In this document: positions 1 through 22,051 of the stretch, in pieces
How the letters are laid out: the number at the start of each line of letters is the position of its first letter
Position numbering within the stretch: the stretch's first letter is position 1
Assembly: GCA_001698425.1 (NCBI GenBank)
Contig: MBRE01000042.1
Coordinates: 13,519-37,518, forward strand
Direction of reading: 5' to 3'
Origin: Oscillatoriales cyanobacterium USR001
GTDB taxonomy: Bacteria > Cyanobacteriota > Cyanobacteriia > Cyanobacteriales > Microcoleaceae
DNA: 24,000 bases
The notes under the pieces: model-generated
The model's input: only the letters and a program-made list of their open reading frames with translations
Database searches by the model: none
Told to the model about the DNA's origin: nothing
Made by a program: the position numbers and the translations under genes

Positions 1-804
1 ATTGCAATTACCGAACCAGCTAAAATTGCGATCGCCCGCGCCGCAAATGGTGGAATGAGGGATGCCTTGCAGTTGCTCGACCAGTTAAGCTTATTAGGAG
101 AGGAAATTACTAGCGATCGCGTTTTGGAACTATCGGGGCGGATACCGGAGTCCGATTTAGTTGCAATTTTGCGATCGACCCGCACCGGTGACGCGCTGAA
201 GCTGCTACAACTGTCCCGCGAACTTATTGACAGCGGGAAGAATCCTAAAATGCTGCTGGGGTCGTTGCTCGCCTGCTACCGAGATTTATTGCTGGTGAAG
301 AGTGTGCCAGACTGTTCGCTGATGCTAGTTAGTGGCATTTCGCACTCCGCGCTGCTGGAAATTGCCGATGCTTGGGACTGCAATGCGATCGCGAATGGCC
401 TCGAACAGTTGCGGACTTCTGAATGGCAACTCAGCAAAAGCGCTCACCCTACGCTGTGGTTGGAACTCTGCTTGCTGGGATTGGCAAAGATACCACAATT
501 AAAATCCTACGCTACAGATAGTGCGATCGCTAACCCCTGTCAATCTGAACGCACCTCCAAGTTGCGATCGCCTCGTTCCAAAGAACAAACCATTTGGGAA
601 AAGGTACTCTCAGCCACTTCGGAGAACAACCGCGCTTTGCTATCTGCTGCTTCCCTGGTAGCACTGACGGAAAAGAAAGCGGTGTTGGCCGTACCCGCCC
701 CATATCTTGACAAGTTTAACCGGAATGCGGCTAAGGTGCAGAAAATATTTCTGGCTGCAACGGGTATCCACTATCAAGTATCGTTTGAGGAGAAAAACCC
801 ATGA
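1..804 (+). CDS. dnaX: DNA polymerase III subunit gamma/tau, C-terminal part (5' end lies outside the window)
   Basis: Frame 1 is open from nt 1 (IAITEPAKIAIARAANGGMRDALQLLDQLSLL...), so ORF 55..804 is only the part after an internal Met. It has the GxMRDALxLLDQ motif, then helical domain III and a tau-type C-terminal tail. The stop overlaps the next start (ATGA at 801-804). Confidence 0.8.
   Translation: MAITEPAKIAIARAANGGMRDALQLLDQLSLLGEEITSDRVLELSGRIPESDLVAILRSTRTGDALKLLQLSRELIDSGKNPKMLLGSLLACYRDLLLVKSVPDCSLMLVSGISHSALLEIADAWDCNAIANGLEQLRTSEWQLSKSAHPTLWLELCLLGLAKIPQLKSYATDSAIANPCQSERTSKLRSPRSKEQTIWEKVLSATSENNRALLSAASLVALTEKKAVLAVPAPYLDKFNRNAAKVQKIFLAATGIHYQVSFEEKNP
28..35. repeat. HIP1 (GCGATCGC) octamer; representative copy of 22 found by eye
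   Basis: Exact GCGATCGC starts by eye at 28, 113, 385, 523, 564, 1349, 1728, 2061, 3327, 3409, 4108, 7556, 7704, 7947, 8536, 8733, 10805, 15400, 15466, 15623, 19951 and 20002. HIP1 is the highly iterated palindrome typical of cyanobacterial genomes. Confidence 0.85.
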
Positions 805-1766
805 TTAGTTTGCTGATAGGGGACGATCTCCACGCGATTCAGAAAAAGCTTTCTGCCTTTAAAAAGAGCCTCGATCCTACTTGGATTAGCTTCAATTATC
901 ACCGCTTTGATGCGACCGCATTAGATGAGGCAATTAACTGTGCTTTAACTCCCGCTGTGGGAACAGAAAAAGCGAAATTAGTAGCGATAGAAGGGTGTAA
1001 TTTCAAACAGTTTACTTCAGAGGTGCTGGATGTTTTACCATTACTCCCACAGATACCAGAAAAGACGCACCTGGTTTTTATAGCGTCTTCTATTGACAAA
1101 CGCCTGAAGGTAGCAAAATTCCTGCTTTCTCAAGCTAAATTGTTCGAGTTCGACCTTATTCCCCCTTGGCGAAGGGATCTTATTTCCCATTCTATCCGAA
1201 ATCAAGCTTTGACAATAGGCTTGTCGCTGAACTCAAATGTCATTGATTACTTAGCAGTTGCAATCGGTAACAATTCGGCTCGCGCCGAATCAGAATTGTA
1301 CAAACTGGCGACTTACAGCCGGGGTACCAACCTTACTTTAAAGGAAGTGCGATCGCTGGTTCCTTCAACTACTCAAAATAGTCTCCAGCTTGCCGAAGCG
1401 TTGAGGGAAAATAACTGTAAAATAGCAGTTTACTTACTGCAAGAACTTTTGGCAATAGGAACTTTTCCACTGGCGATTTGTGCAACGCTGATTACTCAAT
1501 TTAGAACTTGGTTGTGGGTGAAAGCGGCGATAGTTGGAGGGGTTAAGCAAGATGCTGAAATTGCCCAAATTTGTCAAATTGCCAACCCAAAGCGAGTGTA
1601 CTTTCTGAGAAAAGAAGTAGCTGGTGCTTCCGTAACATCTCTTGCGGCTGCGATGTCGCTGCTGCTTGACTTAGAGGCTTCGCTGAAGCTTGGGCGCAAA
1701 GGGGATTTTATGTTACCTGTAATTTTGGCGATCGCGCAACTGTTTTCTCCTAAGAAAGTAAAGTGA
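801..1766 (+). CDS. holA: DNA polymerase III subunit delta (clamp-loader delta)
   Basis: 321 aa. The layout is HolA-like: N-terminal LLIGDD..., KRLKVAKFL, ELYKLATY...LTLKEV, then QNSLQLAEAL and a helical C-terminal domain. It has a 4-nt ATGA overlap with dnaX. Confidence 0.7.
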   Translation: MISLLIGDDLHAIQKKLSAFKKSLDPTWISFNYHRFDATALDEAINCALTPAVGTEKAKLVAIEGCNFKQFTSEVLDVLPLLPQIPEKTHLVFIASSIDKRLKVAKFLLSQAKLFEFDLIPPWRRDLISHSIRNQALTIGLSLNSNVIDYLAVAIGNNSARAESELYKLATYSRGTNLTLKEVRSLVPSTTQNSLQLAEALRENNCKIAVYLLQELLAIGTFPLAICATLITQFRTWLWVKAAIVGGVKQDAEIAQICQIANPKRVYFLRKEVAGASVTSLAAAMSLLLDLEASLKLGRKGDFMLPVILAIAQLFSPKKVK

Positions 1767-2746: not shown

Positions 2747-2749
2747 TCT

Positions 2750-3382
2750 ATGCAAGTAATCACAATTACCGATTTAAACTTCCTAATCAATCCAACCCTG
2801 CTGGCTGTACCCATTGATACCGAACAACAACACTTTCAGTTAGCAATGAAACAAACCTGCATGAAACTTCCCACCGAACCATTACTAGATTCTCATCCAC
2901 AGATTGATAGATGGATAATGGAAATAGGTTTACTATTTCCTGAAGTGTTTCAAGGTCAGCCTCCGCAATTTTTAGTAGATACCCAGTTTATTACCAAACT
3001 TTGTACAAATCAAAAAGCTGTGTACTTACAAATAAACACCAATGCTGCTTTTCTTAGAAATGGATACGTTAATCTAATTGAATGGGCAATTCGACATCCA
3101 GTATTGAATTGGTCTGATAAATTAAAGTTGTGGATAGCAACAGAATATCTTTCATTACCGCCAGAAAACCTCAAGCTGACAATATTAGCACTTCACTCCA
3201 CCTATCCAGGGAAAAGGCACGAAATCATTTGGAACAGCCAGCAACACGAAGAAACAAAAGATTGGCTCATGTCCGTTCTGACAGAACAGGAAGTACCAGT
3301 TGCCAATCAAGCAACATCACAAAGAGCGATCGCCAACCCGACTAATTTCGACATAAAGAAAATCGAGGAGGTAGAAATTTAG
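2750..3382 (+). CDS. hypothetical protein
   Basis: The ORF track gives 2735..3382 from TTG. The in-frame ATG at 2750 (MQVITITDLNF...) lies just after the palindrome. No motif recognised. Confidence 0.5.
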   Translation: MQVITITDLNFLINPTLLAVPIDTEQQHFQLAMKQTCMKLPTEPLLDSHPQIDRWIMEIGLLFPEVFQGQPPQFLVDTQFITKLCTNQKAVYLQINTNAAFLRNGYVNLIEWAIRHPVLNWSDKLKLWIATEYLSLPPENLKLTILALHSTYPGKRHEIIWNSQQHEETKDWLMSVLTEQEVPVANQATSQRAIANPTNFDIKKIEEVEI

Positions 3383-3509
3383 ATCGCGTACAAGTGCCAT
3401 CCTTAAGAGCGATCGCCTGTTGATTTTCGGTCAAACTTTTTTCCTCAAAAGGCTTAAGCCAAACTTACCAAAAAATTAGTCATTCGCAAGGGAAAATTAC
3501 CACATCAGA

Positions 3510-5435
3510 CTAACGCTTGCCAATACTGCCAGTCGCAAAAACCCGCCTATAACGCCCAGTTTTACTAACAACTGAGTCTAGCGGGTCAGAGCCAAATTTC
3601 TTGCCTGAACCTGGTTGCACCGGTGATGGGGATAGAACATTACCCCCGGCATCTGGCAGCGGTAACATCCGTTCTGCTTCCTCAATGCGATCGTACAAAG
3701 CAGCAGTTAGCTGGTCAAGACTGGCCGACTTGATGCGACTCTCCAGCCGTAGCCTAACCTCTGCATCCCAGAGGGCCTCACTCTCACTTTGCCGCTGCAA
3801 ATCAGCTTTAGGAATAGGAATGGTCAGCGCGTAAGGAATTGACCCCTCGCCGCCGGAACTGTAGCCGGGATTCGTAATTACACACCGTCCCTGGGGAAAC
3901 CGCAAAATCTCATCCACTGAAAACAGTGGCATTTTTTGAAGGGACTCGTTCCAACTAATAGATTGATTGCTTTGAGATTGACCGCCCATTGAACGGCTGG
4001 TAGACTTACTTTTGAGCAAAACTTCTTTTTCTCCGTAGCGTTCGGAGTATTTTTTGGCAGTGTCAGTATTACCAGGATTGAATAAAATGTGAGTGCTACA
4101 AGCAGATGCGATCGCTGCCCCCATTTTCTCTCCATACCCTTCATATAGTTGCTCTAAACTCTGAATTCCCAGAATGAAACAAGCTCCATTCGAGCGATAT
4201 TCGTTAATCCACTGCGGCATTCGATCCAATCGAATGGAGGGAAATTCATCAAGTGAAATAACCAGTGGATCTTTCCGAGGGCGGCTTAAGTTAGACACAA
4301 CAAGTAGGTGAATCGCTGCTGCTAGCAAAGGTCCCACGACGGAGCGCCGCTCGTCATCTAATTTGAAAACAATCATCTGTCGGCCTTCTATTTTCGTCGG
4401 GATGTCCGACTTTCCCAAAAATGCTCGCAACAGGTCAGCTTGGATAAAACTACTGAACGTTCCGGCCGCTGTCGTCAGAATTCCAGAAATAGTTTTTTCT
4501 GCTTCTTTAGCACTCAAAAACTGGTTAAAGCTGGTAGCAACCCACTCATCAATTTGACGGGATTGAACCGCATAGTCAATCCGCTTTACCAAATTTGGCA
4601 ACCTCAAAATTGCATAGAGCATTGCCATGTCTGGATATTTAGAACCCTTGACTAATTGAAGAAGTGCTTTAGCCAATAAATCTCCTGCTTTCGAGAAAAA
4701 TTCGTCACTTTTTCCATTGCCTGCACTCGCATTTCTATTAATAACCTGACCGATTTCCCCAGCCATGACCGAATCTTGAGGGGACTTCATAAAGTCGAGG
4801 GGATTAATGATGCCTGAATAGGCTTCTCCCGGTGCAAATACCCACACTTGATAGCCATATCGCGCTGCCATCGGTGCGTGGAGTTTAAGCTGATCGCCTT
4901 TTTTATCGTAGAGAATAATTGGAAATCCTTGCACCATTGCACTTTCTAGCGCCCTATCAATTGTCGAAAAAGTTTTACCCGATCCCGGTGCTCCAATTAC
5001 TAAAGTTGACCGTTCTGCATGAGGGAGCCAAACAGTGGGAGGAGAACCCATAGCTGTCTGAATAGTGGTAACAAAACCTCTAAGTTTTTTTCCTTTCCAC
5101 CAATAGCGAGGACTGCCACACCAGAGCGTAACTTTATTATGTTTTCGTTCTTTAATTTGTTTCAAGGCAAGCTGAGTAGCTGCCATTTTTTCCGAAGTTC
5201 CACACACTTTACCAGTGGTAATTTTGCCCTTGCCATTCCCTAGAAACCGAGACAGTAAGAGGAGGAAAATCAGCGCTCCTATTGTTAGATACCCATCCGG
5301 GTTATTATATTGTTGGAAAAGACCGCCTAAGTCGATTGAGGATAGGGGTGTGGGTTGCTGGGTTCTCCTCTGGGTTTGAGCGAGAACGGGAGTAGAGTTA
5401 GCCTGTGCGATCAAAAATTTAATCTCAAAATTCAT
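3510..5435 (-). CDS. type IV secretion/conjugation coupling protein (TraD/TraG/VirD4-like T4CP ATPase)
   Basis: 641 aa. It has one N-terminal TM (YLTIGALIFLLLLSRFLG), Walker A GAPGSGKT (nt 4971-4994, verified by reverse complement) and a Walker B-like VISLDEFPS. The IILYDKKGD and GIQSLEQL motifs and the overall length fit T4CPs. Confidence 0.8.
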   Translation of the reverse strand: MNFEIKFLIAQANSTPVLAQTQRRTQQPTPLSSIDLGGLFQQYNNPDGYLTIGALIFLLLLSRFLGNGKGKITTGKVCGTSEKMAATQLALKQIKERKHNKVTLWCGSPRYWWKGKKLRGFVTTIQTAMGSPPTVWLPHAERSTLVIGAPGSGKTFSTIDRALESAMVQGFPIILYDKKGDQLKLHAPMAARYGYQVWVFAPGEAYSGIINPLDFMKSPQDSVMAGEIGQVINRNASAGNGKSDEFFSKAGDLLAKALLQLVKGSKYPDMAMLYAILRLPNLVKRIDYAVQSRQIDEWVATSFNQFLSAKEAEKTISGILTTAAGTFSSFIQADLLRAFLGKSDIPTKIEGRQMIVFKLDDERRSVVGPLLAAAIHLLVVSNLSRPRKDPLVISLDEFPSIRLDRMPQWINEYRSNGACFILGIQSLEQLYEGYGEKMGAAIASACSTHILFNPGNTDTAKKYSERYGEKEVLLKSKSTSRSMGGQSQSNQSISWNESLQKMPLFSVDEILRFPQGRCVITNPGYSSGGEGSIPYALTIPIPKADLQRQSESEALWDAEVRLRLESRIKSASLDQLTAALYDRIEEAERMLPLPDAGGNVLSPSPVQPGSGKKFGSDPLDSVVSKTGRYRRVFATGSIGKR

Positions 5436-5679
5436 CTGACTTGTAGTTACAAATTATTGTTAGCAAACAAGTTAGCTTAAATCAAAACTAATCAGTATTA
5501 GCTCAGTCTTAGGAACGAATAATTACAGCCAACAGTTCTAACTTTTGGTATAAAGCACTGCGTAAGTCCTGATTTAGCGCAGCTTCTCTTTCCCTAGTTC
5601 CTAGCCCCTCATCCTAACAGCCTTAGCAATTGCTATATGATCTCTGCTAACGCAGCCAATTGGATAAAAAGCAAAATTC

Positions 5680-6447
5680 TTGAGAGATATTTTTACCGTG
5701 AATAAGAAACAAAAAGAGTGGCTGTCAGAGCTTCTGAAGAGACACCCGGATTATCAGTTTTTAAAACGCAACACGATTCAACTAGGAAGAGGTGACATTT
5801 TGCTGACCTTAGAACGTACAGAATGGATCTATATGGGAGCAGTTGAAGTAAAATATTCAGGAGCATATATCCCTGGATTAAAGTGGCATTATCTTAAAGC
5901 AAAACTGTCACGCAATGGGAAATTACTTTCTGACTTAACCTACCACTGTAAAGTCATGTCTTATCCTCACTGTCCGCTTGCGCCTGACTCGTTGACAAAA
6001 TCTAACTTAGAAAGGACAAAAATTCAGGAAGGAGAACAGATGAATCTCCCCTTTCACGAAGCTGTACTTGTGGTAAACCAGCCTCCATTACTAAAAGGAA
6101 GTTTTTATCGAGCCAAGCGGTGGTATAAGCGTAAATCAGAACAATCGCCTGTAACAAACTATCGCCATACTCCCAAAACTTTCCAACGCGAACTGCCATT
6201 TATGAAGCCAAAAGTCTTAGCTCCCGATACTAAATTTGTCCCTCTAGCCTGTACTGATGGCACTCTCATACAGGTTCCTGAATATCTGATAAAGTTGTTA
6301 GAAGAAGCTAATACTAGCCCATCTGAACGAGCAGATGTAGCTTCTTTGTACGCAATAGCTGGTTTGAAAGCAGCTATCAACTTGGTAGAAGGACTGCCAT
6401 TATTGCGAGCGAGAGCGGTAAACCCCAAAAGCCACACCATACTTTAG
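5680..6447 (+). CDS. hypothetical protein
   Basis: 255-aa ORF with a TTG start, divergent from the T4CP gene across a 244-bp spacer. No family recognised. It is followed directly by a strong hairpin. Confidence 0.4.
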   Translation: MRDIFTVNKKQKEWLSELLKRHPDYQFLKRNTIQLGRGDILLTLERTEWIYMGAVEVKYSGAYIPGLKWHYLKAKLSRNGKLLSDLTYHCKVMSYPHCPLAPDSLTKSNLERTKIQEGEQMNLPFHEAVLVVNQPPLLKGSFYRAKRWYKRKSEQSPVTNYRHTPKTFQRELPFMKPKVLAPDTKFVPLACTDGTLIQVPEYLIKLLEEANTSPSERADVASLYAIAGLKAAINLVEGLPLLRARAVNPKSHTIL

Positions 6448-6469
6448 TGAGATCGCGGATGCGATCTCA
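6448..6469 (+). terminator. stem-loop directly after a stop codon (probable intrinsic terminator)
   Basis: tgagatcgc-ggat-gcgatctca: perfect 9-bp stem with a 4-nt loop, starting 1 nt after the TAG at 6445-6447. Only a short T run (gttt) follows. Confidence 0.5.
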
Positions 6470-6510
6470 GTTTGAACTCCTTCTAAATCTGATATGCGAT
6501 CCTCTATCTA

Positions 6511-7461
6511 ATGGAATACAATAAAATTTGGTGTTATAAAAGCGATATATGTATGACTGATGAAATGTCCAAACCAAACTTCGATGAAAACGATGCCCTG
6601 TTATCTGACTTGCTCAAAGAAGTTCAGAAATGGGAGGGATCTTTAGCTGGCGGGACAAAACTAGGGATAAATGCAGACAAAGTTGATAGCTTATTTCAAA
6701 CTAAAGTCAACTTTGGCAATCCTAGAGATCGACTAATTCGGCTGACCGAGAATATCTTTAAAGATAGCGGTACTGAACTAGATAGCATCTATAAACAACA
6801 GATGCAACAACATTTTGACTTCTATTATATGACCCTGACAGTTGCTCTAAGTCCTGAACGTGGCGCTCGATTCTGGCGGTTAACCTGTGAATTAGATTTT
6901 AGTCCCAAAGGTAGCAGCGAACCAATTATTACCAGCTTGTTTCCTGCTCAAAAGTGGCGTTCAGTAATGAACTTTGGAGTGGGTATGGATGTGGGATTAA
7001 ATGGTAACTTAAACTGGGATGTAGGCGTGGATTCCTCCAAGTTAGCAGAACTATTGGACTTGATACCAGAAGATATCAAAGCTAATGTCACCAGCAAAAA
7101 TAATTTCAAGGCAGTTTTAGCGATTCCTGCATATCAATACAACCTCGGTCATTCCGAAATTCTGACCAACGGTGAAGGAAATTCAACTTGTTACTGGCGA
7201 ATTCAGGATCAAGAACTACAGAAAATTGGCACAGCGAAATTCGGAATCGTTTTTAAAGTTCCCAAAGGCACTGAATCAATTACATTGCAGGGTACAGTAT
7301 GGGCTGAACCAGATCTTAATTGGCTAACGGCTGATATTCGAGATGTTTTTGCCAATTTGTCCGAAAATTTGAAACAACTACTGAAGCTGAAAAATGAAGC
7401 AGCGAGGCATTTTTCTCGTGGCGATGCTGAAAAATGGGAGCTAAACCTGCCGAAAGGGTGA
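6511..7461 (+). CDS. uncharacterised beta-rich protein, upstream partner of the CHAT-NACHT gene
   Basis: 316 aa with no TM helix or catalytic motif. The N-terminal ~90 aa look helical. The core is Gly/Asn-rich and looks beta ([21 protein letters not shown]; [25 protein letters not shown]), with a charged helical tail. There is a 51-nt gap to the next gene. Alternative in-frame ATGs lie at codons 15 and 19. Confidence 0.6.
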
Positions 7462-7512
7462 TACTAAGAAATTTTAGTGTTAAAGTAGGCTCAAAGGCAG
7501 AGGCGGAAATTT

Positions 7513-10500
7513 ATGGCGAAAACATACTACACCTATCGCCTTCGCGTTGCCAACCGCGATCGCGTCCAGGTAGAAAAGTGGGATACTCAACATCAAGACA
7601 AGGGACAACCTAGCGGCGCGTTTCGATATCAGGAGAAGCAAGCAGAAATTACACCACTCCTGCAAATTGTTAGGAATAACGAGTTGAATGATTCTACTTC
7701 AGCGCGATCGCTCGGAGAAGCATTATTTGATGTCCTCTTTGATGATGTGCTGCGCCAAGATTTCGTCAACTTTTACTATCAAGTAGTCCAACAGGAAAAA
7801 CAACTATTGCGAGTTGAACTGGATATCGACGAACAGGGAATGCCTGAGATAGCTGCCCTGCCTTGGGAATTTATGTGCGTGCCTGCAAGAGCTAATCTAG
7901 GTACAATTTGGATGGGAACAGTACCGGATCTGGTTTTCTCTCGCAGGCGATCGCAGTGGATTGCTGCACAACCAATTCAACTAGAATCTGATGAAAAGCT
8001 GAGAATTGCTTTAATTATCTCTGCTCCTTCTAATTTACCGCCCGTTGCCTACGAACCAGTCCAAGCAGCATTAGAAAAACTAGCAGTTGAGCAAGCAAAA
8101 CGGGTGGAATTATTGCCAATTATTAGTTCAGCTAACCCTGAAACTATTGATAATATTCTGTCAAAAGACCCTCATATTTTTCACTTCATTGGTCATGGAC
8201 GGATGAAGAATGAGGGTAAACAAGAAGTCGGTGAGATAGCTTTAGTCGATCCTGACTTTAATGAGGCAATGTGGGTGGATGCAGATTACTTCAGCGAATT
8301 GTTTAATCAACACCGCCCAGGCGTAGTCATGTTACAAGCTTGTGAAGGCGGAATGTTGTCTTCATCCCAGGCATTTGTGGGAGTTGCATCTAAGGTTGTG
8401 CAACAGAATGTACCTGTAGTTGTAGCCATGCAATATGAAGTAAATAACAGTACTGCTAGCAGGTTTGCACTGCGCTTCTATCAACAGTTAGCAGCAGAAG
8501 ATCCGGTTGATATTGCGGCTCAATATGGAAGACGTGCGATCGCTCTTGGTTCAATGCAATACCGTAAACGCGATTTCGCCACACCCGTAATTTTCATGCG
8601 CGTACAGGATGGACATTTATTCAAACGTCAGGGTACTCAATCAGATGCTGGAGCAAGTGAAGTTGCTGGTAAGGAGAAAGAGATTAGTCAAAATGTACAG
8701 CTAGCGTCAGTTGAAGACTTGGTGCAACAGGTGCGATCGCGCCTCCACAAAGACATCCAACGCTTGCATGGTACGATGCCGCTTTGGGGCGTGGATCGTT
8801 GGGTGCCGTTGGGTGAGTTGTTTGTGGATGTCAATATTCTGGAGGAACTGAGCAGTAGTCGTAGGTCGGAACTTGATGACCTGTGGCAGGACTTCACGAC
8901 GGGGATGCAGGGGTATTCGAGCTATCGCAGTTTGGAGCGCATTGGCTTGGGCAGAGATCGGCAACGGGTGTCGGGGCTGGAGGTGCTGGCGAAGAATACG
9001 AACCTGATGGTAGTGGGTAAACCGGGGTCGGGGAAGACCACTTATTTGCAGCGAGTGGTGACGGAGTGCAACGCGGGGAATTTACAAACGCACCGGATTC
9101 CAGTGTTAATTAAACTGCGAGAGTTTGTGGAGGATGGGCGTGAGGTTGCCTATTCGCTAGAGCGTTATCTAGAGCAGTGCTGGCGGTTATCGAATGCAGA
9201 AAGTCAGTTGGTGCTGGATCGAGGTCGGGTGTTGGTGCTGCTGGATGGATTGGATGAAGTGACGGGGGAGGATGGGAAGAACATCACCCAAGAAATCAAG
9301 CGGTTTGCTCGTGCCTATCCGCAGGTGCAGGTAATTGTGACCTGTCGGACGCAGAGCCAGGATTCGCGGTTTGAGCGGTTTGATTATCTGGAGGTGGCGG
9401 ATTTTAATGAGCCGCAGGTAAGGGCGTTTGCCCAGCATTGGTTTAAGACGGTGATGAAGGATAAGTCGGCAGGACTGGCGAAGGCGCACGAGTTTCTGGG
9501 GCTGCTCTTTTTAGAGGAGAATAAGCCGATTCGGGAGTTGGCGATTACGCCGATTTTGCTGAGTTTGACTTGTGCGGTGTTTCACCAGACAGGGAAGTTT
9601 TACTCGAAGCGTTCCAAGCTGTATGAAGAGGGGTTGGAGTTGCTGCTGAAGCAGTGGGACAAGTCGCGCGAGATTGAGCGGGATGAGATTTATCGGGATT
9701 TGTCGGTGGAGCGGAAGCTGGAGCTATTGAGCTATCTGGCAGTTAAAAAATTTGAGCACCCGAAGTATGTGTTGTTTGAGCAGGGAGAATTGGAGGGTTA
9801 TATTGCGGAGTTTTTGAAGATTGGGCAGCAAGATAGTCCGGCGGTGTTGAGGGCGATCGAATCTCAGCATGGGTTGTTGATTGAGCGAAGTCAGAAGGTT
9901 TGGTCTTTTTCGCATCTAACGTTTCAAGAATATTTTGTAGCTAAATATCTTGTTGATAACAGAACTACACAGGAAGAAGTCTTCCAACACTTGGAAGTTC
10001 ACATTACAAAACCTTATTGGCGAGAAGTTTTTTTGTTGACAGTAGAGTTATTGGACAATGCTGACAATTTTTTGCAGGTGATGAAATGTAAGAGCGATTC
10101 TCTTCTAGCAAAAGACTCACAACTCCAGCAGTTTCTTAACTGGGTAGATAAAAAATCTCAGTCTGTGCCCAAAATTTATAGCACTGTGGCAATACGTGCT
10201 TTCTACTATGCTCTAGCTCATGATTCACCAGGTTACTTCTTTGAAGTCAATATAGAAAAAAATTCCACAAACTCTATCTTTGATATTGATTTAGCACTTG
10301 TAACATCTCTTTTCTTTGCGGAAGCGCTTACCTCTAACCACAATATAATCAATGCTTTCCAGGGGAAGTTTGACAATACCAGAGTCCTTGCCCTTGAGCT
10401 TGGATTTACTCCTGGATTTGAAGTTGCATTAACAAATAGAGATGACCATGAAAATTTGTTAGCTAAGGGTATTAGTGATTCTCTAAATCGCGCTTGCATC

Positions 10501-15949: not shown

Positions 15950-17566
15950 ATGATGCAAATTAGGAAACGGGAGAGTCTGGAGGAAATGTTTTCAACTTTC
16001 CTCAACTTTAAAAGCCAGACTCAATATCTTTGGCAAGCTAATCGGAAAGCAGAACAGAATGTCAAAACAAGAATTCTGTTAAACCCAACTGCTAGCGAAA
16101 GAGATTTGGCTGAAGACTGGCTGAATGAATATCTTGAATCTTTGTCAGATCAGCCTAACCAAACGGCTTTGTCAGATGATCCTAGCCAAACGCCTAGATT
16201 TCATTTAGCAGCCTATTTTGAGGACAGTTGCTTTTGGATTGCCCAGAAAATAGCAGAAAAGCGAGCGGGTAAATCATCCCATTTATACTTGTTTCAAGAA
16301 TACTTTCAAATTGCCAGAAGCATAGTTGCTGAACCAAAGAAGATTCTGGATGGATACGACACTAGCCGCAGTAATAGCCCAAAAAGTGTCAAAAACTGGG
16401 GTCAGTTAAAACTCACAAGTGCTATCTTGGAAAAGATAGGTGAAAAGACCTATTCAGATGCTGGAATGCTGAGGCGGCAAACTAAAACTTCGATGAAAAA
16501 AGTTTTACAAGAAGAGGGGATTACTTTGCTGTCAGAGGGATTATTAAAAAGGTTGGATATCAAAGAAACCCAACTAGCACGCTGTGTTCTAGCCTGGGAA
16601 AGTTTTCAGAGAGTTTATACTCCTAGTACGCCTAAAGGGAGGAGGCAACTTTTGTGGCCTGATACCGAGTACCTGAAAAAGATTGCTGATGAATACAATC
16701 AGCAAGCAATAGAGCATAAACTCACCCCCTCAATGACTGCCCAAAACCTTGATGAATTACTAAAAACCTGTGTTAAAGCTTTACGAAATAGTAGCGAAAA
16801 TCAGATGTCTGATCTGGATGTTCAAGAAATGATTTATGAAGCTGAAACAAGGTCTAAGCAGAATTCTCAAGAAATGATTTATGAAACTGAGGCAGGAATT
16901 GAGGAGCTTGAGAATACAGAGATTGGAGAATGTCTATCAAATGCCTTTACCGCCCTACCGAAAGAGGCTCAAATCATGTTAAGACTTTGGCATGGTTTAG
17001 GATTTAATCAGGGTGATGTTGGCGAGTTGTTTGGCATTGAACGGAATCAAATTGCTAACACAGTAAAAGGTTGGCGTAAATTTTTGTTACAGGAATTGAA
17101 CAAATATTTAGGTAAGCCAATGACGACTCAAGAAATTAAGCAGAAATCAAAAAAAATGGATTTGTGGTTGGAGGATTATTGCAGAGATGATTTCGTCTAT
17201 TTTTTATCCAATACCCTTAACAATGAACTCAATGGCGATGTAGAACTGTTACAAAAGTGCTATAACAAGGGTAAGTTTGATCTGAAGGCTGGAGCTAATT
17301 ACCTAAAAATCCCCGAATCTGAAGTCAGTCAAAGAATTGAGAAACTTAAGGTTCAACTGGGATATCGATTGACAGACTATGTGAGCAGTCAATTAACAGC
17401 AGAGGTGGATAAAATTCTACATGAAACCTTGAGTACAAAAAATTTAGCAAAAACATTGACTGTAGATTTAGTCAATCAAAGACTAGCTGAATTTTTAGAT
17501 GAAAACAATCAAGACATCGCTAAATTTGTTGAAGAATGGTTGACCAAAAACAGAGCGGGGGTATAG
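15950..17566 (+). CDS. divergent sigma-70-family-like protein (long form)
   Basis: The track ORF starts at GTG 15938. ATG 15950 has GAGGA 5 nt upstream. A region-4-like HTH, LPKEAQIMLRLWHGLGFNQGDVGELFGIERNQIANTVKGWRKFL, spans nt 16934-17095. A region-2-like segment is LFQEYFQIARSIV...WGQLKLTSAILEKI. A second HTH-like segment, AGANYLKIPESEVSQRIEKLKVQL, spans nt 17243-17371. Confidence 0.55.
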   Translation: MMQIRKRESLEEMFSTFLNFKSQTQYLWQANRKAEQNVKTRILLNPTASERDLAEDWLNEYLESLSDQPNQTALSDDPSQTPRFHLAAYFEDSCFWIAQKIAEKRAGKSSHLYLFQEYFQIARSIVAEPKKILDGYDTSRSNSPKSVKNWGQLKLTSAILEKIGEKTYSDAGMLRRQTKTSMKKVLQEEGITLLSEGLLKRLDIKETQLARCVLAWESFQRVYTPSTPKGRRQLLWPDTEYLKKIADEYNQQAIEHKLTPSMTAQNLDELLKTCVKALRNSSENQMSDLDVQEMIYEAETRSKQNSQEMIYETEAGIEELENTEIGECLSNAFTALPKEAQIMLRLWHGLGFNQGDVGELFGIERNQIANTVKGWRKFLLQELNKYLGKPMTTQEIKQKSKKMDLWLEDYCRDDFVYFLSNTLNNELNGDVELLQKCYNKGKFDLKAGANYLKIPESEVSQRIEKLKVQLGYRLTDYVSSQLTAEVDKILHETLSTKNLAKTLTVDLVNQRLAEFLDENNQDIAKFVEEWLTKNRAGV

Positions 17567-17568
17567 TC

Positions 17569-18756
17569 ATGAAATTCAGTATAACCGAATTAAACCTAAT
17601 TTATTCACATCAACTTTGTTTAGAATTTTCTAGCCAAGACCAGGATAGAGCATGGGCTTCTGAAAACGAATACTCTAATAATTCAGCTAAGTGGAACGCT
17701 TATCTGAATCGACTTTGCTTGAGCAAACTGATTCATTGGTTTCCAGAAAATACGGAAGCAGAAGTAAAAGTATTTCCCAGCGAGAAAGACTTACCAAGTT
17801 TTTGGGAATTTGTCAATGGTACGGCAATAAATATTGGAGAAAAGAGAATTGTTTTGATTCCCAGCGAAGCTGGTAATACAGAAGAATTCTGCGTTCCTCA
17901 AGAATGGGTGGATATTCCTAGTTGGGCCGCAGACTATTATTTAGCCGTGCAAATTAACCCGGATGATGGTTGGTTGCGCTTGTGGGGATATGCGACTCAT
18001 CGACAGTTAAAACACCCGGAAAATTACGATAGACTTGACCGCACATATTGCCTAGAACGCAAAGATTTAATTGATGATTTAGATGTGATGTGGATAGCGT
18101 TAGAACTGGGTGCGGATGAAAAAGTAGCAGTAAAATCTGTCCCTATTTTGTCAATGACGGAAGCGGACAAACTCGTGCTGCAACTTAGTCATTCCTCTGC
18201 TTGTTCTCCTCGTTTAAAGATAGACTTTGAAGAATGGGCTGCAATATTGTCAGAGCAAAAATATAGGCAACAATTGTACAAAGTACGTAACAAAAAGGTG
18301 GTAAAATTAAGCAACTGGTTACAGAACAACTTTGTCAACACAGTTCAAACTGGGTGGCAGACAATTGAAGCTTTATTAGCACCTGAACAACAGAAGTTAG
18401 CTTTGAGTTACAGGAGTAGTTCTGTTACGGAAGAAAACAGTGTGAGGCAAGCTAAACTAATCAATTTTGGCGTACAATTAGGAAATAAATCTCTTGTACT
18501 GCTAGTTGCTCTTACACCCGATGCCGATAATAAAGTAGGTATCCGGGTACAGGTGCATCCGCCGGAAGGTGAAAAGCATTTACCATCCCATGTCAGACTG
18601 GCTTTACTTGAATCAGGGGAAATTCGGCAGGAAGTGCAATCGAGAAACCGGGATAACTTTATTCAACTCAAGCGTTTTAAAGGTATACTCGGAACATCAT
18701 TTAGCGTTCAAGTAGCTCTCGGTGATGTTAGTCTGGCGGAAGAGTTCGAGATTTAA
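17569..18756 (+). CDS. DUF1822-family protein (cyanobacteria-specific, function unknown)
   Basis: ATG 17569 lies 2 nt after the sigma-like stop, with GGGGGT upstream. The alternative ATG 17536 would overlap that gene by 31 nt. Recalled DUF1822 features: VPQEWVDIPSWAADYYLAVQI..., WGYATH, and the C-terminal IRVQVHP...LPSHVRLALLESGE...FSVQVALGD...EEFEI. Confidence 0.65.
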   Translation: MKFSITELNLIYSHQLCLEFSSQDQDRAWASENEYSNNSAKWNAYLNRLCLSKLIHWFPENTEAEVKVFPSEKDLPSFWEFVNGTAINIGEKRIVLIPSEAGNTEEFCVPQEWVDIPSWAADYYLAVQINPDDGWLRLWGYATHRQLKHPENYDRLDRTYCLERKDLIDDLDVMWIALELGADEKVAVKSVPILSMTEADKLVLQLSHSSACSPRLKIDFEEWAAILSEQKYRQQLYKVRNKKVVKLSNWLQNNFVNTVQTGWQTIEALLAPEQQKLALSYRSSSVTEENSVRQAKLINFGVQLGNKSLVLLVALTPDADNKVGIRVQVHPPEGEKHLPSHVRLALLESGEIRQEVQSRNRDNFIQLKRFKGILGTSFSVQVALGDVSLAEEFEI

Positions 18757-18777: not shown

Positions 18778-21207
18778 ATGAGTGTGTTAGTTATCTTAAA
18801 TCTGGGGAATGGCAATCTGAGTGTGGGTTTTCCATCAGTAATTGTCCAGCTATCGACAACTAGCACCTCAGTTGTGGATAAATTTAAAGGCAGTTTACCG
18901 GCTGCACCAGAATTAATAGAAGCTTATAAGAAATGGAACTTCCTCTATCAAGAACTTTCTCAACGTTTGAGGAGTCGTTCTGCGCTTGAAATTGAAAACG
19001 AAGATATAACTAATGTTTCTGTAGAAGCTTTTAAAGAGTTATGCGAGCAATTAGAAACTTTGCTGAATAGTTGGTTAAACTCGAAAGAGTTTCACGAGCT
19101 AGAGCGCCAATTACGCACAGAATTAGATAAAAAAGCAGAAATTCGGTTTTTGATTGAAGTAGATGATGATTTAACCCAGAGGCTTCCCTGGCATTCGTGG
19201 AATTTTTTTAAAGCTTACTCGAAGGCAGAAGTAGCTTTAAGTAGCGCCGAAAATCGTCTCATTCCTCAGCAATATCGGGTTGATGGTCAAATAAACATTC
19301 TGGCGATTCTGGGAAATAGTCAAGGGATTGATGTTCAAAAAGACAGAGAAACCTTGGAAAATTTACAGGGAGCCAAATCAGAATTTCTCGTGGAGCCAAA
19401 ACGCAAGTCGTTAAATGACCATCTGTGGGAAAAAAGCTGGGATATCTTATTCTTTGCTGGGCATAGTCAAACTGAGGGTGAAACAGGTCGAATTTATATC
19501 AACAAGACTGATAGTTTAACGATTAAAGATTTAAAGTATGCTCTTCAAAAAGCAGTTGAACGGGGTTTGAAACTGGCGATTTTTAACTCTTGTGATGGGT
19601 TAGGGTTAGCACACGCTTTGGGAGATTTGCACATTCCCCAAATTATTGTCATGCGAGAACCCGTACCGGATTTAGTGGCACAAGAATTTTTGAAGTATTT
19701 CTTGCAAGAGTTTGCTGATGGTAAGCCTTTATATTTGGCAGTGCGATCGGTACGAGAAAGATTGCAAGGGTTAGAGGATGAATTTCCTGCTGCTAGTTGG
19801 TTGCCAATTATTTGTCAGCATCCTGCCTCTGTGCCTCCGACTTGGCAACAGTTGCGGGATGGGATAGAAAGCGATCGTACCGACTCTACCATGCCTCAAA
19901 GTACAACGCACGATCGCAGCGATCACGCCATCCCGCCAACTTCCCATCCTGCGATCGCCATTTTGCGGCATCCTGCCTTTGTTGCAGGTATTGCGAGTAT
20001 TGCGATCGCAAGCTTAGTATTAGGTGTGCGTCAAATGGGGTGGCTGCAAACATGGGAGTTACAAGCTTATGACCAAACGATTAGGTTGCGACCAGATGAA
20101 GGACCAGACCCTCGCTTGTTGATCGTGACAATTGATGAAGCCGATCTGCAATATCAAGACCGGATGGGAATGGAGAGGCGGGGGTCGTTAGCTGATGCGG
20201 CGCTTAATCAATTATTGAAGAAACTTGAACCACATCAACCGCGAGTTATTGGGTTAGATATTTATCGGGATTTTCCTGTGAGACGCGACCAAACTGAGTT
20301 AGTAAATCAACTAAAACAGAATAATAACTTTATTGCAGTTTGCAAACATAGCGATCCTGAAGCCAACGATCCTGGCATTAAACCGCCCGACGAAGTACCA
20401 GAAGATCGGGTTAGCTTTAGCGATGTGGTAGTTGATTATGACAGTGTTATTCGTCGTCATCTCTGGTCTTTAAATGCTAACATAAATTCTCCTTGTACTA
20501 CAGAAGTTGCGTTTAGCCTTCAGTTGGCATTGCATTATTTAGCTGCTCAAGGCATTAAACCTAAAGCTATCCCAGAAAAACGCTCATTGCAGTTGGGTAA
20601 CATTCTCTTAAAACCGTTAGAGACCCATTTCGGAGGATACCGAAATTTGGACGATCGAGGATACCAAATGTTACTCAATTACCGATCTCGTCAGGTCGCC
20701 GAGCGAGTTAGTTTAACAGACGTTTTGAGTGGAAAGTTTAACCCAAATTTAGTCAGAAATCGGATTGTTATTATCGGCATTATTGCTCCAAGTGTTAAAG
20801 ACGACTACTATACCCCTTACAGTATTGGTCGTCAGCGCAACCAAAAAATGCGCGGCGTGTTTGTTCAAGCTCAAATGACCAGTCAGATTATTGGTGCGGT
20901 GCTGGATAAACGTCCTCTGTTGGGAGTTTTGCCTGCTTGGGGTGATACCCTGTGGATTTGGGGGTGGTCTTTGGTGGGGGGTATTATTGCTTGGCGGATT
21001 CGGAAAACGCTAAATCTGGGATTGGTTTTTGTTGTTGCAGTTGTTACTTTGTCGGGAATTTGCTTTATACTTTTTATCAATGGTACTTGGATGCCCTTAG
21101 TACCATCGTTATTGGCGCTGATATTAACAACGGGTGCAAGTTCAGCAGCATATAGCCAATTCCGGTTTTGGTGCAGTCCAAATAAACTTCCACCCTCCAG
21201 CCTATGA
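18778..21207 (+). CDS. membrane sensor: N-terminal CHAT-like caspase-fold domain + TM + CHASE2 + 3 TM
   Basis: 809 aa. Motifs: LPWH (res 136-139), His229 in FFAGHS (nt 19462-19464), Cys272 in FNSCDG (nt 19591-19593). TM1 is res ~400-417. CHASE2 hallmarks: WLQTWELQAYD, LLIVTIDEADL, VIGLDIYRD, MRGVFVQAQMTSQII. Three C-terminal TMs span res ~721-793, with only 16 residues after them. GAGGAA precedes the ATG. Confidence 0.85.
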   Translation: MSVLVILNLGNGNLSVGFPSVIVQLSTTSTSVVDKFKGSLPAAPELIEAYKKWNFLYQELSQRLRSRSALEIENEDITNVSVEAFKELCEQLETLLNSWLNSKEFHELERQLRTELDKKAEIRFLIEVDDDLTQRLPWHSWNFFKAYSKAEVALSSAENRLIPQQYRVDGQINILAILGNSQGIDVQKDRETLENLQGAKSEFLVEPKRKSLNDHLWEKSWDILFFAGHSQTEGETGRIYINKTDSLTIKDLKYALQKAVERGLKLAIFNSCDGLGLAHALGDLHIPQIIVMREPVPDLVAQEFLKYFLQEFADGKPLYLAVRSVRERLQGLEDEFPAASWLPIICQHPASVPPTWQQLRDGIESDRTDSTMPQSTTHDRSDHAIPPTSHPAIAILRHPAFVAGIASIAIASLVLGVRQMGWLQTWELQAYDQTIRLRPDEGPDPRLLIVTIDEADLQYQDRMGMERRGSLADAALNQLLKKLEPHQPRVIGLDIYRDFPVRRDQTELVNQLKQNNNFIAVCKHSDPEANDPGIKPPDEVPEDRVSFSDVVVDYDSVIRRHLWSLNANINSPCTTEVAFSLQLALHYLAAQGIKPKAIPEKRSLQLGNILLKPLETHFGGYRNLDDRGYQMLLNYRSRQVAERVSLTDVLSGKFNPNLVRNRIVIIGIIAPSVKDDYYTPYSIGRQRNQKMRGVFVQAQMTSQIIGAVLDKRPLLGVLPAWGDTLWIWGWSLVGGIIAWRIRKTLNLGLVFVVAVVTLSGICFILFINGTWMPLVPSLLALILTTGASSAAYSQFRFWCSPNKLPPSSL

Positions 21208-22043
21208 AATGGCGATTGATACTAATTTTTATTTTGCCTTTGGCAGTTGGTATTTTTTTCAACATTGAAGCATCCGCATGGCTAACGGTACAAACACCAC
21301 CGCGTCAGCCATCGCCACCCCGTCGTCAGTCGTCGCCCAGTACACCCCAAAGACAGCCGCCTCAGCCATTAGCGGAAACCCGCAACCCGCCCACTGCAAC
21401 TCCTCTCAGTTTTACCTTACCTCCTAAAGGCGCACCTGGAAACCGGGAAGGTGCATCAGGTCGTGGTGACTGTACAGTGGTAGGCAAAGCTCCTCTCACT
21501 GCTTTAATTCCGGGAACGAATATAGGGTTAACAATTGCCGAACGTCCGACTTTCTGGTTTTATGTGCCTTATCAGTCTAATCCTAGAATTCTGGTTGAGT
21601 TTTCGCTAACAGATGACCGGGAAAATACAGTTTACAAAGCAGCTTTTCAATTAATGGATACGCCGGGTATTGTTGGCATTAACTTGCCGCCAAATACACC
21701 TGGCTTAGAGGTTGGCAAGACTTACCGCTGGGAATTAAAGATAGTTTGCGATCCGGCAAACCCGCGAGAATTTGAGTCTGTTGATGGTGCTATTGAGCGG
21801 GTTCGATTGGAGGAGAGTTTAAAGCAGAAAATAGATCGTGTAAATGGGCGCGATCGTGTTCTTATTTATGCTCAAAATGGTTTATGGTACGATACTTTAA
21901 CTAATCTAATTCAACTGCGTCGTCAGAATCCGAAGGATGCTCAATTAGCGAAAGATTGGGAAGATTTATTGCAACAGTCGCCAGATATTCCTTTAGATAA
22001 GATTGTCAATGAGCGTGTTGTTAATTGTTGTACACCAAGGTAG
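21204..22043 (+). CDS. exported DUF928-family protein
   Basis: It has an ATGA overlap with the preceding stop (21204-21207). There is a signal-peptide-like N-terminus (MKWRLILIFILPLAVGIFFNIEASA) and a Pro-rich linker. Recalled DUF928 hallmarks: PPKGAPGNREGASGRG and ERPTFWFYVPY. Confidence 0.75.
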   Translation: MKWRLILIFILPLAVGIFFNIEASAWLTVQTPPRQPSPPRRQSSPSTPQRQPPQPLAETRNPPTATPLSFTLPPKGAPGNREGASGRGDCTVVGKAPLTALIPGTNIGLTIAERPTFWFYVPYQSNPRILVEFSLTDDRENTVYKAAFQLMDTPGIVGINLPPNTPGLEVGKTYRWELKIVCDPANPREFESVDGAIERVRLEESLKQKIDRVNGRDRVLIYAQNGLWYDTLTNLIQLRRQNPKDAQLAKDWEDLLQQSPDIPLDKIVNERVVNCCTPR

Positions 22044-22051
22044 TAACAGTT

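Follow-up and report, generated by a model that had tools for sequence, protein, structure and literature searches.

The gene at the centre of this study encodes a CHAT-CHASE2 membrane protein, and the best explanation we can offer for it, put forward tentatively, is that it is a receptor in which a cue perceived by CHASE2 would switch on an N-terminal CHAT protease, leading to cleavage of the neighboring DUF1822 protein and to the release of a sigma factor. At the level of sequence, this mechanism is suggested by the packing of the operon, the conservation of the neighbors, the sigma-family matches, the co-variation of DUF1822 with sigma type and the exchange of C-terminal modules. By analogy, it is suggested by two precedents that link CHAT proteins to ECF sigma factors, Csx29/Csx30 and DdvA, both recovered as fold matches. 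The protease activity, substrate, ligand and topology of the family are all predictions. The window referred to below is the whole stretch of DNA analyzed, 24,000 nucleotides of Oscillatoriales cyanobacterium USR001, and its relevant features are the following:

15938..17566, + strand: opening gene of the operon, encoding a divergent sigma-70/ECF-like factor of 542 aa (NCBIfam TIGR02937)
17569..18756, + strand: DUF1822 family protein, 395 aa (Pfam DUF1822, E 2.2e-92); 406 aa if the start is at 17536
18778..21207, + strand: CHAT-CHASE2 membrane protein, single ORF of 809 aa with an ATG start and AGGA 6 nt 5' of the ATG
18778..19137, + strand: N-terminal alpha+beta region, residues 1-120; in the model three strands and three helices (~1-115), pLDDT mostly 77-95
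19138..19842, + strand: CHAT caspase-fold protease domain, residues 121-355 (Pfam CHAT, dyad, Foldseek)
19462-19464, + strand: His229 codon
19591-19593, + strand: Cys272 codon
19855..19971, + strand: variable disordered linker, residues 360-398
19972..20034, + strand: TM1, residues 399-419 (hydropathy peak 2.18 at 399-417; model helix 399-419), predicted to cross from the cytoplasm into the periplasm
20035..20934, + strand: CHASE2 domain, residues 420-719, predicted periplasmic (Pfam CHASE2; pLDDT mostly 84-96)
20935..21174, + strand: TM2, TM3 and TM4, residues 720-799 (hydropathy and model), with the TM2-TM3 loop WRIRK predicted on the cytoplasmic side; the last few residues and the stop codon come after them
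21204..22043, + strand: exported DUF928 protein, 279 aa (Pfam DUF928, E 5.7e-61), signal-like N-terminus
22052..24000, + strand: TPR protein with a signal-peptide-like N-terminus, at least 649 aa and open at the window end (TPR_12)

Domain layout and predicted topology of the receptor

Pfam CHAT (PF12770) matched residues 186-331 of the receptor, scoring 45.9 bits where the cutoff is 24 (E 6.6e-12); the match is partial and covers profile positions 106-268 of 289. Apart from CHAT and CHASE2, Pfam reported no domain, and Peptidase_C14 (metacaspase/orthocaspase p20) gave no match at E <= 0.1. The motifs LPWH (at 136), FFAGHS (containing His229) and FNSCDG (containing Cys272) lie in one ORF, at the positions given in the first-pass annotation. 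Both dyad residues were invariant in an alignment of 50 sequences, and over 120 homologues their conservation was 97% or more. Together with the flanking FFAGHS and FNSCDG they were also invariant over the best 150 of 2464 representatives (clustered at 50% identity), which argues for selection on catalysis. When the AlphaFold2 model of the receptor (mean pLDDT 84.3) was compared by Foldseek with solved CHAT proteases, Csx29 ranked first for the N-terminal module (8eey_B, E 3.2e-10), and further matches were found to separases (1e-8 to 8e-7), SAVED-CHAT (2.8e-7) and DdvA (8rot/8rw5, ~4e-6), those to MALT1 and metacaspase 9 being much weaker. The caspase or CHAT fold proposed in the same annotation agrees with all three types of evidence. 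From sequence and model, we describe the module as a CHAT protease of the caspase fold whose His229/Cys272 dyad is intact and whose endopeptidase activity is predicted.

Residues 1-360 align as one block in the representatives (best 150 of 2464 clusters, E <= 0.001), and the alpha+beta region at their beginning is probably the domain that Kaur et al. (2021) call 'EACC2'. This N-terminal unit is followed by CHASE2 with TM helices in 69 of the best 150 representatives; the others are 429-1841 aa long and include, in the matches listed, proteins with nSTAND1+WD40 (9 of 57 scanned) or with a cyclase domain. The survey of these alternatives is incomplete, as it covered 57 of the 150 representatives and the 25 commonest Pfam families. 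The same N-terminal module with varied C-termini fits CHASE2 as an exchangeable sensor and CHAT as the constant part. Among the 120 closest receptor homologues (696-857 aa), CHAT and CHASE2 were the only Pfam domains.

Between the two domains, the linker (~360-398) is abundant in Thr, Ser, Asp, Pro and His and is the least conserved portion of the protein, with a gap fraction of 0.42-0.51 among homologues and pLDDT values below 50 at residues 366-394. The CHASE2 domain itself was recovered over its whole profile (PF05226, residues 411-736, E 1.4e-66, 225.1 bits, profile positions 3-257 of 257) and contains a pair of cysteines, Cys522 and Cys573, that is invariant in the homologue alignment. 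A profile of 50 homologues gave no match at E <= 1 against all PDB sequences, so sequence comparison reveals no solved relative of CHASE2, and CHASE2-type proteins were absent among the listed Foldseek matches of the receptor model. After CHASE2, hydropathy and the AlphaFold2 model place helices TM2-TM4 at ~720-740, 744-767 and 774-799. The protein ends beyond the last hydrophobic stretch with SQFRFWCSPNKLPPSSL, a tail whose length is 10-17 residues according to the end point chosen for TM4.

The predicted pattern is thus one helix before CHASE2 and three after it, as judged from hydropathy, model helices, charges and the Cys pair. The protease is predicted to be cytoplasmic and CHASE2 periplasmic because residues 1-380 contain no signal-like segment (the highest Kyte-Doolittle mean over 19 residues is 1.32), the loop that joins TM2 to TM3, WRIRK, is positive, the C-terminal tail has Arg and Lys, and the Cys522/Cys573 pair is invariant. 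Sequence and model would therefore describe a four-helix inner-membrane protein with a cytoplasmic constant N-terminal unit and a periplasmic CHASE2 held between TM1 and TM2-4. The first-pass annotation had arrived at much the same layout: its Pro/His/Thr-rich linker, its order of TM1, CHASE2 and three TM helices and its lack of any output domain past the last helix were all recovered, the cytoplasmic N-terminal module that it implied agrees with the predicted topology, and the 16 residues that it left after that helix were about right. The reverse arrangement, with CHAT in the periplasm as the TPR-CHAT part of DdvA is (PMC11506125) and CHASE2 in the cytoplasm, is scarcely credible given the 398-residue N-terminal region that lacks a signal-like segment, the positive loop and tail on the same side as the N-terminus, the invariant CHASE2 cysteines and the cytoplasmic protease predicted by Asplund-Samuelsson et al. 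(2012; PMC3501461).

The operon and its conservation

The five genes follow each other in the order sigma-like gene, DUF1822, CHAT-CHASE2, exported DUF928 and exported TPR protein, with a 2 nt gap, a 21 nt gap, a 4-nt overlap and an 8 nt gap between them, respectively. The ATG of the DUF1822 gene lies 2 nt past the TAG stop of the sigma-like gene, and that of the DUF928 gene overlaps the TGA of the receptor gene (ATGA). The closest relatives were found in Microseira wollei, with 69% for the receptor and 87% for the DUF1822 protein. No RNA family was found anywhere in the window with Rfam at gathering thresholds, and the counts of promoters and terminators in it were no higher than in shuffled sequence and are uninformative on the ends of the operon. 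The window also contains a CHAT-NACHT STAND protein, two transposases and a TraG-type coupling protein with 91% DNA identity to an Oscillatoria plasmid.

The CHAT-CHASE2 architecture was found in at least 120 sequence clusters and at no fewer than 599 places in cyanobacterial genomes. Paralogues are numerous in filamentous cyanobacteria, two copies being adjacent in three of the loci analyzed (L058, L066 and L077). Neighborhoods were counted over 80 genome loci containing 82 receptor genes. A DUF1822 gene was located directly upstream of the receptor gene in 68 of the 82 cases, and a DUF928 gene downstream on the same strand in 62, being absent in about a quarter of the loci. Searching by tblastn alone detected a sigma-like gene directly upstream on the same strand in 25 of the 80 loci and missed a second, short family; profile iteration that included this short family raised the figure to 50/82 with a sigma-like gene upstream of DUF1822. 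Beside the remaining 32 receptor genes no sigma gene was detected, and a TPR-CHAT gene takes that place in some of them. A sigma factor can therefore not be the output of all these receptors.

The sigma-like protein of the window is a divergent one. It matched TIGR02937 (sigma70-ECF) over the whole model (E 1.2e-7), although its 31.5 bits are below the curated cutoff of 42.9, and it gave no Pfam match and only a chance-level match to PDB sequences. Among 43 genes in the same position in related loci, Pfam recognized Sigma70_r4_2 in 20, Sigma70_ECF in 10 and Sigma70_r2 in 8. It is on the sub-threshold NCBIfam match and the Pfam matches in these orthologues that the sigma assignment is based.

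In the AlphaFold2 model of the DUF1822 protein (pLDDT 83.7), the N-terminal domain is alpha+beta, the middle is helical and the C-terminal domain is a beta-sandwich; the label of 'TPR protein' found in the literature does not agree with such a fold. A Csx30-like fold, an anti-sigma domain and TRADD-N were also considered and rejected, the model having no PDB match at E <= 0.001 in a library that included Csx30 (8eey); for the C-terminal domain the fold search returned weak Ig-like beta-sandwich matches only. Homology to a known sigma inhibitor is thus unsupported. Neither Pfam nor NCBIfam detected an anti-sigma domain here. There are two versions of DUF1822, with a median length of 405 aa beside long sigma genes versus 329 aa beside short ones, and detectable conservation between them is limited to the C-terminal ~150 residues. 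The DUF1822 version tracks the sigma type. We consider this protein a candidate sigma partner or inhibitor and a candidate substrate of the protease.

Downstream of the receptor, the DUF928 protein has a hydrophobic N-terminus (12-residue hydropathy mean 3.0) that is signal-like in 58 of 64 orthologues, and two conserved cysteines, Cys90 and Cys182, and is a candidate periplasmic partner of CHASE2. In the last gene, frame +3 is free of stops from 22046 to 24000 and Pfam TPR_12 matches eight stretches (E 1.5e-77). Relatives of ~870-1100 aa were found in 27 of the 80 related loci, and the copy in one of them (L016) consists of TPR and CHAT. The product of 22052..24000 is therefore probably an exported TPR-CHAT protein whose CHAT part would fall past the window end.

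Earlier descriptions and related systems

The CHAT-CHASE2 architecture is widespread and has already been described from sequence, so it is not a discovery of this work. A metacaspase-CHASE2 protein was listed by Jiang et al. (2010; PMC2853523), and Asplund-Samuelsson et al. (2012; PMC3501461) described an N-terminal caspase homologue with 1+3 TM helices, a cytoplasmic protease and an exposed receptor. A ligand-activated model was drawn by Bhattacharjee and Mishra (2020; PMC7475262). The premise of the first-pass annotation, that the CHASE2 receptors described so far carry their outputs only C-terminally, is out of date in the light of these papers and of Kaur et al. (2021; PMC8195603). Its caspase-fold module, missing C-terminal output and predicted cytoplasmic protease still stand, and its claim to novelty falls to publications of 2010-2021. 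The classical CHASE2 receptors carry their output, a kinase, a cyclase or GGDEF, at the C-terminus (Zhulin et al., 2003, as cited in PMC8195603). Those proteins share with our receptor the sensor cassette of TM1, CHASE2 and three TM helices, but they carry a domain after the last TM, where ours has none, its enzymatic module being N-terminal to TM1.

The most complete precedent is the class defined by Kaur et al. (2021, eLife; PMC8195603), with EACC2, a caspase domain and a variable C-terminus (e.g., CHASE2), for which sigma and DUF1822 neighbors were reported and a stimulus-induced activation of the caspase ending at an ECF sigma factor was proposed. The order of domains (alpha+beta, caspase fold, CHASE2 with TM helices) is the same as in the receptor. 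The variable C-terminal region, with CHASE2+TM as one listed option, agrees with what we found in the receptor family, and the ECF-type sigma and DUF1822 neighbors are here both directly upstream of the receptor. Their gene order also resembles that of the window. That work is computational, does not name DUF928 and has a 'TM+beta_rich' gene; it calls DUF1822 a TPR protein, as against the alpha+beta and beta-sandwich of the model obtained here. The tables of the same paper include a TIR+TM+CHASE2 protein, i.e., another N-terminal effector on CHASE2. In Trichodesmium erythraeum, the metacaspase-CHASE2 protein has, like the receptor, an N-terminal caspase homologue and CHASE2 between 1 and 3 TM helices (PMC2853523; PMC3501461). 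However, it was identified as a metacaspase (p20/Peptidase_C14 type), and the receptor of the window matches CHAT instead.

Two experimentally studied systems can be compared. In Craspase (Strecker et al., 2022; PMC10028731), the TPR-CHAT protein Csx29 is allosterically activated and cleaves the sigma inhibitor Csx30, so that CASP-sigma is released, the inhibitor gene adjoining an ECF-like sigma gene. The cleavage of Csx30 by Csx29 is, by analogy, the closest worked-out parallel to the mechanism proposed here. Csx29 and the receptor share 12% sequence identity. The trigger in Craspase is target RNA bound by Cas7-11, in contrast to a membrane sensor here, and no cas genes were found among the ORFs of the window. 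The second system is DdvA/DdvS of Myxococcus xanthus (Bernal-Bernal et al., 2024; PMC11506125), in which DdvA is a TPR-CHAT transmembrane anti-sigma factor and therefore also a transmembrane CHAT protein controlling an ECF sigma factor, the fold match being limited to CHAT. Its TPR-CHAT part is periplasmic with an incomplete active site, whereas the CHAT domain of the receptor is cytoplasmic by prediction and has a complete dyad. DdvA has a cytoplasmic zinc-binding anti-sigma domain and one TM helix, and lacks CHASE2. Its anti-sigma domain is on the same chain; here sigma binding, if any, would need a separate protein.

Proposed mechanism and alternative readings

In the mechanism that we propose, CHASE2 would detect a cue in the periplasm or envelope, probably aided by the exported DUF928 protein, whose gene is translationally coupled to that of the receptor, and the signal would cross TM1 and the membrane bundle and turn on the cytoplasmic CHAT protease. 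The protease would then cut a specific partner, for which DUF1822 is the likeliest candidate, and possibly also the linker of the receptor itself, and this cleavage would free the sigma factor for a transcriptional response. DUF1822 would act as a sigma-holding adaptor, with an N-terminal half that varies with the sigma type and C-terminal ~150 residues (the last ~100 forming the beta-sandwich in the model), common to all versions, that would serve the protease. Several observations speak against this scheme. No similarity was detected between DUF1822 and either Csx30 or any solved anti-sigma factor, and the sigma-like protein of the window scores under the curated cutoff of NCBIfam and lacks a Pfam match of its own. 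The incomplete presence of sigma and DUF928 genes beside the receptors also counts against it, and conserved operon partners need not make the contacts proposed.

An extension of the mechanism to both sides of the membrane, which we regard as speculative and rather unlikely, would have the exported TPR(-CHAT) and DUF928 proteins producing the signal in the periplasm or presenting it to CHASE2, with CHAT in the cytoplasm cleaving DUF1822, as an anti-sigma adaptor of a structurally new type, and so releasing the very divergent ECF-like sigma factor. If true, such a relay would be a caspase-type transmembrane activation of sigma factors, distinct from regulated proteolysis of the DegS/RseP type, and a route specific to cyanobacteria, mostly filamentous ones.

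Among the alternatives, the one closest to the proposed mechanism is that the activated CHAT module cuts its own linker (~360-398), in cis or across a dimer, and the freed module acts in the cytoplasm on DUF1822 or other proteins. The long, variable and disordered linker would suit such a cut, activation by autopeptidase activity was proposed for the class by Kaur et al. (2021; PMC8195603), and autoproteolysis in trans has been suggested for the DdvA dimer (PMC11506125). The linker, however, shows no conserved motif, and we give self-cleavage only a small chance. It is compatible with cleavage of a partner, and the present data do not distinguish them.

Somewhat less probable still is that the receptor is an effector of cell suicide or conflict, in which damage to the envelope or a phage would be sensed and CHAT would degrade many proteins, the sigma factor being accessory only. 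Reviews place the class among apoptosis-like systems (PMC8195603; PMC7475262), many paralogues exist in filamentous cyanobacteria, some of them side by side, and the window is rich in genes of mobile or conflict type. Nevertheless, the PADLOC defence models matched none of the four operon proteins, the steady linkage to sigma and DUF1822 genes points to a specific transcriptional output, and the characterized CHAT proteases (separase, Csx29) cleave specific substrates (PMC11506125; PMC10028731).

Finally, CHAT could be a scaffold without catalysis that tethers both DUF1822 and the sigma factor to the membrane, their release following from a conformational change that involves no proteolysis. 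The incomplete CHAT active site in the resting DdvA structure (PMC11506125) and the loss of the dyad in 44% of cyanobacterial caspase homologues (PMC7475262) would allow this, but the invariance of His229, Cys272 and their flanking motifs over the best 150 representatives (50% identity clusters) makes it very improbable.

The value of the window is modest, as a clean example of an operon of sigma, DUF1822, CHAT-CHASE2, DUF928 and TPR protein genes. If the proposed mechanism, from cue to sigma release, were true, abundant proteins, present in hundreds of cyanobacterial genomes and often as several paralogues in each, would couple an outside sensor through a caspase-like protease to a sigma factor. 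This would be bacterial transmembrane signaling built on caspase-fold proteolysis, and it would bear on the origin of caspase-type signaling in multicellular prokaryotes.

The receptor gene and its fold

The receptor is the single ORF found at 18778..21207 (+ strand), coding for 809 amino acids from an ATG with an AGGA 6 nt 5' of it. Its N-terminal part carries LPWH (from residue 136), FFAGHS (holding His229) and FNSCDG (holding Cys272). The Pfam scan gave only CHAT and CHASE2, with no match to Peptidase_C14. Hydropathy and an AlphaFold2 model (mean pLDDT 84.3, from a 50-sequence alignment) agreed on the membrane helices and on the short tail that is all that follows the last one.

Residues 186-331, CHAT (Pfam E 6.6e-12, 45.9 bits, cutoff 24)
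Residues ~360-398, linker, disordered in the model and the most variable, gap-rich stretch among homologues
Residues 399-419, first membrane helix (TM1)
Residues 411-736, CHASE2 (Pfam E 1.4e-66)
Residues 720-740, 744-767 and 774-799, three further helices

This is the layout described in the first-pass annotation, i.e., an N-terminal caspase-fold module, CHASE2 and no C-terminal output. The caspase/CHAT fold that it proposed was also borne out, by a Pfam CHAT match above the cutoff and by the comparison with PDB structures, in which the top matches of the model were CHAT proteins throughout. The best was Csx29 of the type III-E craspase (8eey_B, E 3.2e-10), with separases (E 1e-8 to 8e-7), SAVED-CHAT (E 2.8e-7) and the transmembrane anti-sigma factor DdvA (E about 4e-6) also matching, and MALT1 and metacaspase 9 far weaker. 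Judging from the model, the N-terminal module has a genuine CHAT protease fold. The Csx29 alignments span about 380 columns, compared to a CHAT core of 235 residues, so that an extended CHAT fold may take in part of the first 120 residues.

The operon, its conservation and its surroundings

The receptor gene is the third of a tight array on the same strand, whose other members are the following.

15938..17566, + strand, sigma-like gene (542 aa), matching the sigma70-ECF superfamily model over its whole length (E 1.2e-7; 31.5 bits, below the curated cutoff of 42.9)
17569..18756, + strand, DUF1822 (Pfam E 2.2e-92), starting 2 nt past the sigma stop codon
21204..22043, + strand, DUF928 (Pfam E 5.7e-61), in ATGA overlap with the receptor stop codon
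22052..24000, + strand, TPR ORF (649 codons from its ATG, open at the window end), starting 8 nt past the DUF928 stop

Related loci supplied 43 genes at the position of the sigma-like gene, of which 20 matched Sigma70_r4_2, 10 Sigma70_ECF and 8 Sigma70_r2. DUF1822 has been termed a TPR protein, and tabulated as "TRADD-N+TPRs" for some proteins with this annotation (Kaur et al., 2021; PMC8195603). The label does not fit the AlphaFold2 model (pLDDT 83.7), which is not TPR-like: an alpha+beta domain is followed by a helical middle and, at the C-terminus, a beta-sandwich. Nor is DUF1822 a detectable relative of Csx30 or of known anti-sigma domains, the model having no match among PDB structures at E <= 0.001. 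The DUF928 protein is predicted to be exported because of its signal-like N-terminus, Pro-rich stretch and two conserved cysteines. The product of the TPR ORF begins with a signal-like segment, matches TPR_12 in eight places and is probably an exported TPR-CHAT protein like those of related loci. G+C of the ORF is 30%, versus 41-45% in the 1-kb windows over the receptor and DUF928 genes that precede it. Among the matches listed, the named proteins most similar to those of the operon came from Microseira wollei.

We carried out a census of 80 related genome loci with 82 receptor genes; those with a name were cyanobacterial without exception, and some genomes held several copies. DUF1822 lay directly upstream on the same strand at 68 of the 82 receptor genes, DUF928 downstream on the same strand at 62, and a sigma-like gene upstream of DUF1822 at 50 (none was detected at the other 32). 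The CHASE2-DUF928 adjacency, seen before in Nostoc punctiforme and thought lineage-specific, is widespread. The sigma genes fall into a long family (~400-550 aa, the type of the window) and a short one (~225-260 aa), and the DUF1822 version follows them, with medians of 405 aa and 329 aa respectively; only the C-terminal ~150 residues are detectably common to both versions. At some loci a TPR-CHAT gene takes the place of the sigma gene. TPR proteins of ~870-1100 aa related to the TPR ORF were found in 27 of the 80 loci, one of them confirmed as TPR plus CHAT.

Several of these loci had peculiar arrangements. Three from Nostoc (L058, L066 and L077, ~450-11700 in each) contain two divergent DUF1822 - CHAT-CHASE2 - DUF928 cassettes back to back, a sign of local module duplication. 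In loci from Scytonema, Brasilonema and Tolypothrix (L006, L009, L011, L012 and L034), a gene of ~1540-1640 aa with a match to the receptor profile (~2400-7400, - strand) is found divergently upstream of the receptor gene; four of these loci have a DUF1822 gene on the opposite strand 4-7 kb downstream, three of them together with a sigma-like gene. In another Nostoc locus (L008), a large TPS-domain (two-partner-secretion) protein (12217..15480, + strand) is found ~1 kb downstream of DUF928, with one ORF between.

The rest of the window makes an oscillatorian plasmid or mobile island the likely origin, since the gene for a TraG/TrwB-type type IV coupling protein, together with its neighbor (3510-6368), has 91% DNA identity to plasmid NC_019763 of Oscillatoria nigro-viridis PCC 7112, and a DDE transposase (11301..12458, - strand) and a TnpB/OrfB_IS605 gene (12734..14161, - strand) are present. 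Two adjoining ORFs (55..1766, + strand) match DNA polymerase III gamma/tau domain III and delta subunit, i.e., clamp-loader-like genes within a region rich in mobile elements. There is also a second CHAT protein, a STAND-type conflict protein of 1135 aa (7513..10920, + strand; CHAT 67-339, NACHT 498-645, NCH2 1032-1112). GC skew is unusually high (0.355) at 9001-10000, where G+C is 50%.

Predicted topology and a possible route to the sigma factor

Two rules guide the topology of such proteins: positively charged loops stay inside, and export requires a signal. Residues 1-380 of the receptor contain no signal-like segment (maximum 19-residue hydropathy mean 1.32) and begin with a confident beta strand in the model. 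Between TM2 and TM3 the loop reads WRIRK, and Arg and Lys occur in the tail, while the loop joining TM3 to TM4 (NGT) has no charge. In addition, a Cys522/Cys573 pair in CHASE2 is invariant among 50 homologues, and such a pair is expected in an oxidizing compartment. The absence of a signal, the charged loop and tail and the Cys pair therefore predict a cytoplasmic protease and C-terminus and a periplasmic CHASE2.

With the fold, the dyad, this predicted topology and the conserved operon established for the receptor, a route can be proposed because two other CHAT proteins control an ECF sigma factor: Csx30, an inhibitor of CASP-sigma, is cleaved by Csx29 (PMC10028731), and DdvS has the TPR-CHAT protein DdvA as its anti-sigma factor (PMC11506125). 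CHASE2, perhaps with DUF928, would sense a periplasmic cue and switch on the CHAT protease, which would cut DUF1822 or the linker of the receptor itself, and the sigma factor would thereby be released. The lack of a PDB match for DUF1822, the receptor genes at which the sigma gene went undetected and the absence of defense-system model matches to the sigma-like, DUF1822, receptor and DUF928 proteins all advise caution.

Among the alternatives, self-cleavage of the receptor with release of its N-terminal module is conceivable and rather unlikely, and a suicide protease somewhat less likely still. A CHAT domain acting as a scaffold without catalysis is improbable: His229, Cys272 and their flanking motifs are invariant both in the 50-homologue alignment and across 150 representatives of 50%-identity clusters, which makes a pseudo-enzyme unlikely. 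A reversed topology is very hard to reconcile with the signal and charge pattern.

The family to which the receptor belongs

A search of 5.8 billion proteins with the receptor gave 7551 matches at E <= 1e-5. The 120 of them listed were all 696-857 aa long with exactly CHAT plus CHASE2 and, where they had a name, were annotated as "CHASE2 domain-containing protein" (Microseira, Planktothrix, Scytonema, Nostoc, Phormidium and others). When one genome of each species was scanned, relatives turned up at 599 sites at least. With residues 1-360 as query, the representative clusters numbered 2464 at E <= 0.001, and 1580 of them reached E <= 1e-30. Among the best 150, proteins of 429-1841 aa, the whole 360 residues were nearly always covered and usually N-terminal. 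The CHASE2-TM module was present in 69 of the 150; other partners included nSTAND1 with WD40 (9 of 57 scanned) and an adenylate/guanylate cyclase domain. Such varied C-terminal partners fit the view that the protease module is fixed and that CHASE2 is one of several sensors exchanged on it.

The CHAT-CHASE2 architecture is common and already described from sequence. Jiang et al. (2010; PMC2853523) listed a Trichodesmium metacaspase with CHASE2. Asplund-Samuelsson et al. (2012; PMC3501461) described the N-terminal caspase homologue, CHASE2 and 1+3 TM helices of this protein, and concluded that the protease is active in the cytoplasm and the receptor exposed. A ligand-activated model was drawn by Bhattacharjee and Mishra (2020; PMC7475262), and Kaur et al. 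(2021; PMC8195603) defined a class in which the "EACC2 + caspase" module is constant and the C-terminus varies, CHASE2 being an option that they name. These four papers, from 2010 to 2021, make outdated the premise of the first-pass annotation that CHASE2 comes only with C-terminal outputs; its observations of the layout and the His/Cys motifs stand, and its interpretation is supported in part. The receptor-linked caspase homologue is an idea about 14 years old, and by its sequence the receptor is a further member of a computationally described family. New beyond the literature are the figures on the constancy of the DUF1822 - receptor - DUF928 core, the finding that each sigma type has its own DUF1822 version, the structural model of DUF1822, and the putatively exported TPR protein encoded at the window end.
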